The translations under genes and the position numbers were made by a program. From positions 24,924,001 through 24,988,000 of the forward strand of contig OX597832.1 in the NCBI GenBank assembly GCA_951406725.2: a DNA stretch of 64,000 nucleotides, in the 5' to 3' direction. The notes below the pieces were generated by a model, which was given only the letters and a program-made list of their open reading frames with translations, had not been told where the DNA came from and did not search any database. The DNA comes from Octopus vulgaris. Its lineage: Eukaryota. Positions 680 to 61,900 of the stretch are shown piece after piece (the first letter of the stretch is position 1; each line of letters starts with the position of its first letter).

Positions 680-1125
680 TGGCACAGGTCCAGTAATTTA
701 TTGAAGTGGTAACTCTATTTCATCGACCCCAGTGCTCAACTGGTACTTGTTTCATCGACCCCCGACAGGATGTAAGGCAAAGTTCACCCCGGTGACATCT
801 GAACTTAGAATTCAAAGTCGGAAGAAATACCTTTTTCTTTATTATCCACAAGGGGCTAAACATAGAGGGGACAAACAAGGACAGACATAGGTATTAATTC
901 GATTACATCGACCCCAGTGCATAACTGGTACTTAATTTATCGACCCCGAAAGGATGAAAGGCAAAGTCGACCTCGGCGGAATTTGAACTCACAACGTGAC
1001 GACAGACGAAATACGGCTCCGCATTTCGCCCGGCGTGCTAACGTTTCTGCCAGCTCGCCGCCAGTCGGAAGAAATACCGTTAAACATTTCGTCCGTCACA
1101 TTGACCATTATTCCAGCTGGCCGTC
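680..1125 (-). mobile_element. Old diverged SINE-A copy (680-831 plus 1063-1125), split by insertion of a younger copy
   Basis: A degenerate body and tail lie at 680-831 and a degenerate tRNA-like head at 1079-1125. The direct repeat AGTCGGAAGAAATACC occurs at 816-831 and 1063-1078. Confidence 0.75.
832..1062 (-). mobile_element. SINE-A, full-length tRNA-derived SINE with MetaSINE/MESC-like central domain
   Basis: Minus strand shows a GGCGGCGAGCTGGCAGAAACGTTAGC A-box region, a GAGTTCAAATTCC B box, the central GCCTTTCATCCTTTCGGGGTCGATAAATTAAGTACC, and a tail AGCCCCTTGTGG..AAAGAAA. It is flanked by a 16-bp TSD. Confidence 0.9.
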
Positions 1126-1129
1126 AAAG

Positions 1130-1560
1130 ATAAACGAAGCCATATTATTTCAGTTAAGTTACCCATGCTTCCACGAAGGCTTCAAACAACGTTTCCTCTG
1201 TTATCACTGGAAGAGTTCTCTGGCTCGAGCTCGATAGGTTCCCATCAGAAACGATTGGAATGATATTTTCCGGATGGATATTGAGGCGTGACCAAATGAA
1301 CGCGAACCACCAAAAGATAGAACGATGGCTGCAAAGTATTCTAACCGACATTCGTACAAATCTGTCAATCGCTTTGCATAATTAGTGTACTCACCCACCT
1401 GTTTAAGTATTTTAAATCATATTTATGTACACCGCAGCCCTCATGGGTGTGAAGTTGTTTGTTATCGATCGTAACATATTCCAGTGTAGATTGTTTGTCT
1501 GGTATATCTTGGAGAAAATTCTTCAGGTTATTTGAGAGAAATCTTAAAGAATATCGCACT
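1130..1560 (-). pseudogene. Highly decayed RTE-like LINE reverse-transcriptase fragment
   Basis: Minus-strand peptide 'IFWWFAFIWSRLNIHPENII...LFEAFVEAW' loosely resembles the RTE C-terminal 'AFGRL..VW....I...TK...LEAF' region. It has many stops. Confidence 0.3.
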
Positions 1561-2104
1561 ATATTTCATACTTCAGGGTAGTTTATTACACTTAGATTTA
1601 ATTTAGAATCTCAGCCAAGTCGACGCTGTCTATTTTATTTTATTATTATTATTTTTTCTTGCCTACGGTGTCAATGAAATACTTAACTTTCTAAGTGGAT
1701 TGTCTGCAAGAGATATGTAGAGTTTACTATCTCAGCGGCAATGCAACAGATTCGTTCATATACTCTTCCAGCATCATACGAAAGCAGAAGCTTCTTAAAT
1801 AATTCTGTCTCCCTACCTAATTAACAGAGTTCTATAGCTAGAGAGAATGATATTGCCTCGAGCTGTCGCTCAAACTCAGAAAGTTGTCTGCAATAAATCT
1901 CCGCAATCATACTCTGATATTAAAAACTAATTCATAACGAATAACGTTTAAGAAGTTATAAAATGTTTGACAAAACGGAGAACTGGTATTGATTTGTTAA
2001 GAGAAGTTTTTGATTAGTGACTACTTGTAACCAAACGATGCTAGCGACACAACATGCGGTGAAGAGGCTCACTTTTGTCTCTTTAATATACTTTTGTTTG
2101 GCGA

Positions 2105-2305
2105 GAAGGTGATCTGGCATAATCGTTAGCAAGCCGGGCAAAGCGATAACCGGCATTTCGTCCGTCTTACGCACCTGAGTTGAAATTCCACCAAGGTCAA
2201 TTTCACCTTTTATTCTTTCGATAAAATAGGTACCAGTGGAATACTGGGTTCGATGCAATCGAATTACTGCCTTCCTCGAAGTTGGTGGCCTCTTAATAAA
2301 ATCTG
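2105..2305 (+). mobile_element. Degenerate SINE-A-related copy
   Basis: Reads 'ctggcataatcgttagcaagccgggc...gagttgaaattcc...gataaaataggtaccagt'. Confidence 0.7.
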
Positions 2306-2489
2306 CAATCAATTGGATTTTTGTTTAGTATATCTGTAAATTGAACTCATGCCTCTGTTCAGAAAAAGTATACAAAACACCAACTATTGTCTATGTCGTT
2401 TTTCTTAAGTCAGAAGTCCTTCATATGAATCTTACATAGATCTTTTTTCACATATACATCATATGTATCTTACATAAATTTTCTTCCGC

Positions 2490-2609
2490 ATATATATATA
2501 TATATATATATATATATATATGTGTGTGTGTGTGTGTGTGTGTGTGTGTGTGTGTGTGTGTGTATATATATATATATATATATATATATATATATACATA
2601 TATGTATAT
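2490..2609. repeat. (TA)n-(TG)n-(TA)n compound microsatellite
   Basis: Directly visible. Confidence 0.95.
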
Positions 2610-2700
2610 GGGCAAATCGGTTGCGAACGGCGAATTCAAGAACAGCCTCAACAAAACACTGATGTTCGGTGAAAGTTTTAAATGAAATATTAAAAGTAAA

Positions 2701-2737
2701 AATATGATGTTTCAAGCATGGCTCTTCGTCGGATAGT
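2701..2737 (-). ncRNA. Minimal hammerhead-ribozyme-like motif (variant core, decayed)
   Basis: Minus strand: ACUAU-CCGACGA-A-GAGC(cau)GCUU-GAAA-CA-UC-AUAUU. Stem I pairs 4/5 and stem II has 4 bp including a G.U. Confidence 0.5.
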
Positions 2738-2866
2738 CAAAGAAATTCCAGAGAAATCGTAAAGGTGGCAGAAGCGGATAATCCCGTAGAGAAGCACGTG
2801 GATTTCTACAAATAACTGTTTGCATATTCTCAAATACTTGTTTTCTTTATCTCTGGTTCCTTAGAC

Positions 2867-59275: not shown

Positions 59276-59277
59276 AC

Positions 59278-59432
59278 CTTATTGCCACCTGGGCATGATA
59301 AATCTATGATCCAGCATAGTTTGCTTTCTTTCTCAATTAAGACTATGTCCGGCTTCCAATTCTTTATCTCACGGTCGCACCGAATCATAAAATCCCATAG
59401 GATCTTTGCACTTTTATTTTCAACGATGCCTA
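59278..59432 (-). pseudogene. R4/Dong restriction-like endonuclease fragment
   Basis: 'GIVENKSAKILWDFMIRCDREIKNWKPDIVLIEKESKLCWIIDLSCPGGNK' contains the K-PD..D catalytic region. Confidence 0.85.
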
Positions 59433-59579
59433 TTATTATATCATGAAAAATCTCAGCTGTATTTTGAGTATGATGGATAGTGTCTGCTCTTCACAGCTAG
59501 CAGACTAAAGTAGTAATTGTTTACCGATTACGTTTCAAAAACTCTGCGAAGGTTTCTTAAAGTCCCAAATAATGATGAT

Positions 59580-59920
59580 TTTGTTCTTAGGTTTCCTATC
59601 TTTACACTCGTTCCAATCTTTTTTGAGCTATGTTAGTAGTTGAATACCGATACTTCGAAGCGCACCAATCACCATTAGTATCCTGTCCACTTCCTTCACT
59701 GCCCACGACCAGCGTATTTCCCTTTTCGTCAATTCATCTTCATTGTTGACTTTTTCTTCTTCTTTCTCTTCAATCCCGTTGTCACCAGGACATGCTATGT
59801 GTCAATTACCAGGCAGGATTATTTTTGTTTTATTTTCTGTTCACTACTACGATGTGAGGTATTCGAAGTTTAATCTGGAGATCACACTGAATCATTGCAT
59901 CCTACGAGATTTTGCAATCC
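59580..59920 (-). pseudogene. Second, more diverged R4/Dong endonuclease C-terminal fragment abutting (ATT)n
   Basis: Frameshifted 'KIS*DAMIQCD...IACPGDNGIEEKEEEKVNNEDEL...IGALRSIG'. Confidence 0.75.
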
Positions 59921-60320
59921 TTATTATTATTATTGTTGTTATTATTATTATTATTATTATTATTATTATTATTATTATTATTATTATTATTATTATTATC
60001 ATTATTATTATTATTATTATTATTATCATCATTATTATTATTATTAGTATTATTATTATTATCATTATCATTGTTATTATTATTATTATTATTATTATTA
60101 CTATTATTATTATTATTATTATCATTATTATTATTATTATTATTATTATCATCATTATTATTATTATTATTATTATTATTATTATTATTATTATTATTAT
60201 TATTATCATCATTATTATTATTATTAGTATTATTATTATTATCATTATCATTATCATTATTATTATTATTATTATTATTATTATTATTATTATTATTATT
60301 ATTATTATTATTATTATTAT
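59921..60320. repeat. 400-bp (ATT)n/(ATC) microsatellite
   Basis: Directly visible. It is the source of the poly-I and poly-L ORFs. Confidence 0.95.
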
Positions 60321-60321
60321 C

Positions 60322-61158
60322 CGAGGCAGCGAGCTTGCAGAATAGTTAGCACGCCGGGAAAAATGCTTAGCAGTATTTCGTCTGCCGCTACGTTCTGAGT
60401 TCAAATTCCGCCGAGGTCGACTTTGCCTTTCACGGACAAACGGATTAAGTCGATTATATTGACCCCAGTGCGTAACTGGTACTTAATTTATCGACCCCGA
60501 AAGGATGAAAGGCAAAGTCGACCTCGGTGGAATTTGAACTCAGAACGTAGCGGCAGACGAAATACCTATTTCTTTACTACCCACAAGAGGCTAAACACAG
60601 AGGGGACAAGCAAGGACAGACAAACGGATTAAGTCGATTGTATTGACCCCAGTGCGTAACTGGTACTTAATTTATCGACCCCGAAAGGATGAAAAGCAAA
60701 GTCGACCTCGGCGGAATTTGAACTCAGAACGTAGCGGCAGACGAAATACCTATTTCTTTACTACTCACAAGAGGCTAAACACAGAGAGGACAAATAAGGA
60801 CAGACAAACGGATTAAGTCGATTATATTGACCCCAGTGCGTAACTGGTACTTATTTAATCGACCCCGAAAGGATGGAAGGCAAAGTCAACCTCGGCGGAA
60901 TTTGAACTCAGAACGTAGCGGCAGACGAAATACCTATTTCTTTACTACCCACAAGAGGCTAAACACAGAGAGGACAAACAAGGACAGACAAACGGATTAA
61001 GTCGATTATATTGACCCCAGTGCGTAACTGGTACTTAATCTATCGACCTCGAAAGGATGAAAGGCAAAGTCGACCTCGGCGGAACTTGATCTCAGAACGT
61101 AGCGGCAGACGAATACCGCTGAGCATTTCGCCCGGCGTGCTAATGTTTCCGCCAGCTC
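60322..61158. mobile_element. SINE-A array: plus-strand head (60322-60431) fused to a minus-strand head-to-tail tetramer (60432-61158, 184-nt period)
   Basis: Junction GAAATACC|TATTTCTTT ends at 60566, 60750 and 60934. A single head lies at ~61110-61158. Confidence 0.9.
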
Positions 61159-61518
61159 CTAATACCGATAGCCTACTATGAGGAGAACTTTACTATAATT
61201 ACAGCAATGGCAAACTAAAATAAATCCTCATCTTATATGGCAATTTAAAAGGCAGCCTACATTTGCCTCTACCAGCACTTACTTTTATTTCAGTGATGAA
61301 TATATGTATGGAAATCGAAAGCAAATATCCTGCTACTTTGTCAATATTATCAATTGGGTGTAAAATCTGATGCTGTGAATAACTAAAAAAAACTACCCGT
61401 GCTGTCTGAAGACTGATGTCACATTCGGATTCTGCACCCCAATTTTACCCTAAATCTGCTGAAAATGTTTTAAATAGCATGAAAAATTTTTAAGTTGTTG
61501 CACAGTGTTATTATTATC

Positions 61519-61900
61519 CGGGGTGTCGAGCTGGCAGAAACGTTAGCATGCCGGGCGAAATACTTAGCGGTATTTCGTCTGACGCTGCGTTCTGAGTTCA
61601 AATTCCGCCGAGGTCGACTTTGCCTTTCATCCTTTCGGGGTCGATAAATTAAGTACCAGTTACGCACTGGGGTTCGATGTAATCGACTTAATCCGTTTGT
61701 CTGTCCTTGTTCGTCCTCTCTGTGTTTAGCCCCTTGTGGGTAGTAAAGAAATGGGTATTTCGTCTATCTTTACATTGTGAGTTCTAATCCAGTCAAAGTC
61801 AACTTTGCCTGCCATTCTTTCGGGGTCGATAAGAAAAGTACCAGTTCCGTTCTGCGGTCCCTATAATCGACGCTTCCTACCCTCAAAATCTGCCGGTTCC
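61519..61900 (+). mobile_element. SINE-A full copy (61519-61752) joined to an older diverged body (61753-61900)
   Basis: Junction AAAGAAATG|GGTATTTCGTC at ~61753. Confidence 0.85.

Follow-up and report, generated by a model that had tools for sequence, protein, structure and literature searches.

A short interspersed element of Octopus vulgaris that repeatedly joins its 3' end to one fixed base in copies of its own family

The window analysed here is a stretch of 64,000 nucleotides of the Octopus vulgaris genome (assembly GCA_951406725.2, contig OX597832.1, positions 24,924,001 to 24,988,000 of the forward strand). Its subject is SINE-A, a short interspersed element (SINE) whose majority sequence is 231 nt long and carries GGTATTTC at consensus position 48. 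Three older families, for which the labels B1, B2b and B2a were coined in this analysis, have the same head and core as SINE-A and different tails. The original prediction, made from the letters of the window, was that SINE-A repeatedly joins its 3' end to one fixed site inside other copies. All eight junctions that it named are present, at 831(-), 5532(-), 21452(-), 51317(+), 60566/60750/60934(-) and 61754(+). Five are letter-exact, with AAAGAAATA followed directly by GGTATTTC, and three are inexact, with AAAGAAAAA before GG at 831, AAAGAAATA before AGTATTTC at 21452 and AAAGAAATG before GG at 61754. They are not eight separate cases but six arrays: private variants are common to the four units at 60432-61158, which hold the junctions at 60566, 60750 and 60934 and therefore form one array.

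673..831, minus strand: 3' part (48-207) of an old B1-family recipient, 80% to consensus
816..831, minus strand: downstream copy of a 16-bp target-site duplication, starting GGTATTTC
832..1062, minus strand: young SINE-A donor (consensus 1-231) lying in position 48 of the old copy, 94% to consensus
1063..1122, minus strand: upstream copy of the duplication (1063-1078) and the retained old head
5372..5763, minus strand: seamless heterodimer of SINE-A (5763-5533) and B1 48-211 (5532-5372), with no internal duplication and a GATA repeat as outer flank
21252..21729, minus strand: A-A dimer, junction 21452, with a 15-bp duplication around the whole dimer (21252-21266, 21715-21729)
51072..51514, plus strand: A-A dimer, junction 51316/51317, with a 17-bp duplication around the whole dimer (51072-51088, 51498-51514)
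60330..60432, plus strand: inverted SINE head (about 8-110) joined to the truncated last unit of the four-unit array
60432..61158, minus strand: four-unit array with a period of 184 bp, junctions 60934, 60750 and 60566
61527..61889, plus strand: seamless heterodimer of a young SINE-A (97%) and an old unit 48-184 (80%), junction 61753/61754
15627..15851, plus strand: solo SINE-A, comparison copy, with a TA repeat at its end
31669..31879, minus strand: solo SINE-A, comparison copy at an unrelated site, with an imperfect 13-bp duplication
38195..38415, plus strand: solo SINE-A, comparison copy at an unrelated site, with a duplication

The duplication described at 831 is real, and the old head continues past it. 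The recipients at 831, 5532 and 61754 are diverged, as had been claimed, at 80-85% to their own consensus versus 92-97% for the donors. The arrangement at 831 is an exception, because at 21452 and 51317 the duplication encloses the whole dimer. In the dimer at 21252..21729, (CTA)n and a short duplication of the tail interrupt the first unit. The four-unit array is an amplification of one lineage, and a 400-bp ATT repeat adjoins the inverted-head fusion next to it (window 60330-60566). No match to open reading frame (ORF) 2 of a long interspersed element (LINE) was found in the window.

SINE-A is short and has more than 111,000 exact tails, and duplications surround 30/74 of its solo copies, versus 2% in controls. 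Motifs resembling the A and B boxes of RNA polymerase III (Pol III) promoters were spotted by eye; ARAGORN reported 0 genes in the window and Rfam 0 matches on one locus. The consensus is devoid of a T4 terminator, and a hairpin is predicted at about 33-58 of the head. The data consisted of the window, 140 evenly spaced 10-kb stretches (1.46 Mb including the window) and loci selected by pattern, among which exact junctions and intact heads are over-represented. The genome-wide pattern counts cover the 2.8-Gb genome.

Self-targeting of SINE-A at genome scale is established by these counts. The tabulation of bases after SINE-A 3' ends that had been proposed finds GGTATTTC directly after 42,056 of 111,066 exact tails, far above chance, as reversed-pattern controls gave 0 and 86. 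In the 1.46-Mb set, comparison with other positions of the consensus places 44 of 54 junctions at position 48 and the remaining 10 at position 15. The targeting is not exclusive, as had been anticipated. Among 86 tails from the first 1 Mb of the fixed-interval samples plus the window, 36 meet position 48 and 2 more do so after a repeated GAAATA, whilst position 15 accounts for 1, SINE sequence in reverse orientation for 2 and sites outside SINEs for 45. Position 15 is a second fixed self-junction, AGAA[A/T]CGTTAG in the A-box region, with 3,497 exact copies genome-wide (e.g. L271-L290). Its main users are tails of the C219 variant, it is favoured by an older tail variant, and none of ten position-15 dimers checked has an internal duplication. 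Position 15 of other copies has received B2a tails as well, with 6 junctions across the full data (L123:~673 and L218). Ahead of the target, the final hexanucleotide of the tail is at times doubled, as GAAATA at L014, L043, L070 and L111 and as GAAATT in a non-SINE tail type (G000:C1:115835247), which suggests restart or slippage at the 3' end.

The joining has occurred repeatedly and independently. The last (partner) units of the arrays fall in four families, and each diverges much as solo copies of its own family do (0.135 vs 0.152 for B1, 0.143 vs 0.146 for B2b and 0.081 vs 0.090 for B2a). Donor (first) units are about 0.05 diverged, so that the comparison of ages finds partners usually older than donors. 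The 78 B2a partners form 3,003 pairs, and not one of these is a sibling pair with at least 3 private changes in common. The units of A-A dimers are 0.096 apart, versus 0.101 for random pairs; the internal units of longer arrays are 0.018 apart, a figure that holds for arrays of at least three units only. The first junction therefore unites two independent copies, and extra units come from later amplification.

These measurements argue against three other origins. One pre-formed dimeric master, expected to give units of equal age and shared diagnostic variants, is ruled out by the four partner families, the mostly older partners and the lack of any sibling pair among the 78. Slippage or duplication of one monomer is rejected as the origin of most dimers, since in 26/32 A-A dimers the two units differ by at least the 5th percentile of the distances between random pairs. 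The earlier argument against tandem slippage thus holds for most A-A dimers but not for the internal units of arrays, which do amplify and for which monomer duplication is accepted. An origin from rolling circles or cleaved RNA is rejected in view of the head on the arrays, the partners from other families and the lack of clear headless units starting at 48.

Arrays at position 48 come in two forms. In the first, seen at 831, the order is old head, duplication, donor, old body; this form makes up 6/79 arrays unselected for type, and 3/37 in the 1.46-Mb set. The other 73/79 are seamless, with no internal duplication, one young head and, where present, a duplication outside the whole array (17/32 arrays ending in an A unit and 27/48 ending in a B2a unit, versus about 2% in controls). 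True insertion into DNA at G48, as had been concluded from 831, is borne out by nested loci with duplications and by the 411 of 49,143 exact heads genome-wide that lie 2-16 bases after GGTATTTC. Of 30 candidate loci of the duplication type, 20 have SINE sequence upstream and 10 have other sequence, a split counted by hand in which two pairs are near-duplicates and a few loci lack the downstream duplication copy. This is in line with the supply of the 8-mer, 90 SINE to 37 non-SINE. Of those 90 SINE 8-mers, 34 are junctions and 56 are unhit, whilst at most 1/37 non-SINE 8-mers is hit. The excess at SINE sites belongs to the seamless class. The expectation that insertion separates the Pol III boxes of the recipient is correct for the nested form but fails for the seamless majority, in which the recipient's A box has been replaced and the array therefore retains one intact putative A-plus-B promoter.

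The heads of seamless arrays bear on how the replacement came about. All arrays may once have been nested, the extra head having been lost by recombination between the two 63-bp repeats. Repeats of head plus duplication do recombine, as tandem runs with a period of about 65-69 bp illustrate (G000:C5:87874248-87875360; C13:69036080-69036259). Random crossover, however, predicts that about half of the heads would be old, whereas B1/B2b bodies carry young heads (0.071 vs 0.20), mostly of the A type at position 19 (T in 4/14, versus about 90% T in B1/B2b). Later random loss of one head is thus disfavoured, and we regard this explanation as very improbable. A minority of first units do carry the recipient's T63: 9/84 seamless B1/B2b arrays, versus 0/83 solos and 0/23 nested copies (p=0.003). 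Such a minority would be expected from a heteroduplex between the complementary DNA (cDNA) of the donor and the resident head. Donor-derived sequence reaching far into the partner showed no general gradient and is clear at locus L092 only. Solo B2a copies showed no depletion of the intact site (18/44, versus 21/44 for a control 8-mer).

What marks the site is a DNA base in a fixed register. Target duplications start at G48, or in the register GGTAT, in SINE and non-SINE targets alike. The upstream duplication copies, which are pure target, read GGTAT for tails of the T219 variant (15 cases) and mostly TATAT for C219 tails (12 cases); upstream of the junction, these 15 and 12 copies show no conservation, and no asymmetry indicating RNA-templated bases was seen at duplication starts. 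Position 48 or GGTA received 56/86 T219 tails and 4/36 C219 tails, and outside SINEs GGTA received 15/39 and 1/29, respectively. In 99 nested candidates with an intact old head, base 48 is G in 90, A in 7 and T in 1, and one carries the G43/C48 variant. This variant makes up 29/72 typed solo A heads yet only that 1/99 of nested recipients, so that it is nearly immune, and it is depleted in seamless arrays (19/110, versus 36/91 solo plus nested; p=5e-4). With a slightly longer pattern, 2,030 copies have a non-G base at the junction.

The original prediction offered two reasons for the choice of site: that the GAAAUA end of the RNA pairs with TATTTC in the target, or that the partner enzyme reads the hairpin of the head. 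The hairpin is predicted, and G43/C48 is a compensatory change, which makes it probable that the hairpin matters for the RNA. But G43/C48 retains both the predicted hairpin and TATTTC and is still nearly immune; the DNA base G48 therefore matters and the hairpin does not. Non-SINE GGTATTT targets without the hairpin are hit in register at the same G, and the 20:10 split of duplication-type loci matches the 8-mer supply. In target-primed reverse transcription the primer strand has the same sense as the SINE tail GAAATA. The same AAAGAAAT(A) end also lands on position 15, on TA repeats and at unrelated sites, and the complementarity of GAAATA and TATTTC is therefore probably incidental. We give practically no credence to either pairing or hairpin recognition as the basis of targeting.

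The tail provides a lead to the partner LINE, and the proposed route of tail homology succeeds in part. About 50 nt at the 3' ends of SINE-A and LINE L321 align. In the sampled DNA, 11 tails outside SINEs are similar to that of SINE-A; they come from a LINE of which many intact copies are identical.

L321:489-5815: L1/Tx1-type LINE, intact and seemingly very young, with dozens of identically scoring copies in long open frames

Its ORF1 (471 aa) has a zinc knuckle, the zf-CCHC match being just under the curated cut-off, and its ORF2 (1,149 aa) has APE, reverse transcriptase (RT) and zf-RVT domains. The element ends in (CTAT)n without poly(A). It is likely to be of the Tx1 type, judging from architecture and recall, since the APE-RT-zf-RVT design marks L1/Tx1-type elements and not Tx1 alone. 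No named Tx1 element was present among the 120 homologues listed or among the atlas hits; for a LINE protein neighbouring the window, the closest named homologues listed are from Argonauta and a cuttlefish. This intact lineage prefers a target sequence other than GGTATT: 11 of 12 listed tails run into TATC (two of them being one locus). Other non-SINE tails of the Tx1 type do reach the SINE sites. Six copies join position 15, and one tail type joins position 48 in 5/5 copies from site-blind searches, one of them after a repeated GAAATT. The latter type is rare (about 10 copies of the exact pattern), and no ORF was found in two of its loci, one of which is a 70-nt fragment and the other of which was covered mostly on the wrong side.

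The reading that we favour, at about an even chance of being right, is insertion driven by a Tx1-type LINE at GGTAT(TT), probably guided by read-through RNA and closed by annealing of the cDNA to the head of the recipient. The LINE enzyme is likely to nick and insert the SINE at GGTAT(TT) sites in DNA. With no T4 terminator, SINE transcripts would continue beyond the element, and the RNA of a copy located at position 48 would end in SINE sequence from 48 onward. The end of such read-through RNA is likely to pair with the nicked strand and so steer progeny to the same site. The last 47 bases of the cDNA would then anneal to the resident head and replace it, giving a seamless gain of 184 bp and leaving the old duplication outside; where annealing failed, a nested copy of the 831 type would remain. 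Dimers arising from read-through and moving as units may add to the count of junctions, and later tandem amplification has taken place in the arrays of at least three units. RNA guidance is favoured because the consensus lacks a T4 terminator and because near-identical tails differ in their targets.

The specificity of Tx1 endonucleases alone could set the site, one lineage serving 48 and another 15, with seamless closure as just described. The fixed register, the want of any match upstream of the junction, the requirement for G48 and the non-SINE Tx1-type tails at both positions suit this view, and target choice by Tx1 elements is, in the available text of PMC4494074, mainly endonuclease-driven. 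Set against it, the tail type that joins 48 is rare and showed no ORF, SINE tails about one base apart go to different sites, and each tail variant uses several types of target. Endonuclease specificity as the whole explanation seems to us distinctly unlikely.

Several observations weigh against read-through guidance with annealing. The absence of RNA-templated bases at duplication starts leaves endonuclease preference alone compatible with the data. Exact tails of the intact (CTAT)n LINE lineage joined to GGTATT numbered 0. For the R2 element, cDNA annealing did not raise insertion efficiency, as far as the available text of PMC11331408 goes, so that the excess at SINE sites would need longer recognition or amplification. 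Perfect 12-mer duplications flank 10/27 A+B arrays versus 31/52 A copies (p=0.06), which is suggestive of older duplications around the arrays, and mismatch tests of duplication age were not significant (p=0.11-0.22). CpG decay is low in B partners (119/621, versus 129/349 in solo B), even against solos with an intact site, and fits unmethylated targets or transcribed templates equally. Finally, at the heterodimer L092, the one orthologue test with a clear answer, contigs of organism C span both flanks with 4 letters between them, that is, an empty site. The divergence of the B unit of L092 seems too great for such a recent event, in keeping with a dimer that moved as a unit. L092 is atypical (1/47): crossovers within its core make it a mosaic. 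Its duplication is perfect. From the empty site and the mosaic, at least some dimers probably move as units. An orthologue search for L186 was swamped by repeat matches. Sums of contig depth, in which the A tail is seemingly absent from organism D and less abundant in organism C, are not copy numbers and were set aside as evidence.

Movement of dimers as units might be the rule. Rare nested copies of the 831 type would be transcribed into the old copy and the resulting dimers retrotransposed from many source loci, the junction being inherited. Duplications that enclose whole arrays, young array heads, the L092 site and the lack of preference beyond the 8-mer among duplication-type insertions all agree with this. 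It would, however, need hundreds of equally active sources, given the lack of siblings among B2a pairs, and B1/B2b tails, which are 13-15% diverged and unlike the Tx1 tail, would need mobilising in the time of SINE-A. Nor does it predict recipient-type T63 in first units or the depletion of C48. We consider it rather unlikely as the general route.

Alternatively, the RT may start on one SINE RNA and jump at 48-55 to the 3' end of a GGUAUUU-ending A RNA, so that a single event would produce the dimer. Template switching of this kind accommodates the independence of the partners and their low CpG decay, the youth of the heads, the solo state of C48 copies and the empty L092 site. A Tx1-like ORF2 fragment joined to SINE-A at the B box (L290:1155-1516) is possibly a template-switch chimera. 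A tail pattern derived from L290 occurs at 19 places and is uninformative. Active old B tails would be needed, however, and perfect duplications occur at 2/21 B1/B2b solos and 0/3 of their arrays. Nested copies and non-SINE GGTAT targets are left unexplained, and recipient-type heads would require a double switch. Template switching is therefore improbable as the source of the arrays.

A stronger form of the read-through reading is that SINE-A is a self-homing element: its choice of target would be heritable and encoded in RNA, the read-through flank of each source copy would program the site of the progeny, and copies within the family would direct new ones to the same base, where the resident head is overwritten. 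About 40% of suitable family sites would thus have been hit, and G43/C48, which keeps its RNA hairpin, would be an escape variant in an arms race inside one SINE family. This we regard as possible but doubtful. If the SINE does insert by means of a Tx1-type enzyme and overwrite the older head, a jumping element would be supplying its own landing sites.

In the usual view, a SINE inserts wherever its partner LINE nicks. Alu elements insert into A-rich tracts of other Alus, and like other dimeric SINEs they resemble SINE-A in forming dimers and in self-insertion; the Alu site is a homopolymer, whereas that of SINE-A is one base in a putatively tRNA-like head, and SINE-A has no single dimer master. 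Self-targeting by SINE-A adds a further form to the Tx1/SINE targeting described in crocodilians, where SINEU-3 is likewise a SINE mobilised by Tx1-type LINEs (Tx1-Mar) that strongly prefers certain set positions of a common transposon and inserts in tandem. In the available portion of that report (PMC4494074), the target is Mariner-N4_AMi and tandem copies sandwich a duplication, whereas SINE-A targets its own family and most of its arrays have no internal duplication. As the available text on R2 describes (PMC11331408), homology of the template 5' end to the upstream target gives a seamless junction without duplication, much as here. R2 is, however, autonomous and rDNA-specific with a restriction-like endonuclease, whilst the homology of SINE-A would come from the shared family and its annealing step is our proposal. 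The SINE-derived satellites of squamates and the Dip multimers of jerboas show head-plus-tandem arrays, homogenised middle units and, for Dip, a high share of multimers; in the accessible part of PMC10702118 they are ascribed to duplication or full-length units, whereas the first SINE-A junction joins two independent copies at one base. The octopus tRNA SINEs OK, OR1 and OR2 (PMC4824008), known here by name only, possibly belong to the same superfamily. An octopus repeat annotation lists L1-Tx1 and SINE families and, in its available text, no such targeting (PMC13282606). A self-targeting SINE with a fixed internal site was not found in the literature searched, to which supplements, Repbase and subscription journals may add one.

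Tens of thousands of events have thus fallen on one base of the SINE's own family, a young family capping older ones. They form a large natural dataset on whether the endonuclease or the RNA 3' end chooses the target of a non-LTR (non-long-terminal-repeat) element, and on the closure of the 5' junction between a donor and a target that are homologous. Where such arrays occur in octopods, the annotation of repeats and the estimation of their age combine older and younger units.

A further locus concerns the LINEs. On the minus strand of L250, a putative histone gene, presumably histone H4, and its stem-loop are followed immediately by the 3' fragment of a Tx1-like element, which ends near 3087. 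Junctions of this type were found five times on C29, which suggests a histone-cluster LINE lineage; no joining of this lineage to position 48 was observed.

The arrays also display one route from SINE to satellite. At L180 (G000:C1:4676271-4678105), a ten-unit array with near-identical internal units and a B2a tail at its end has the form of an incipient satellite.

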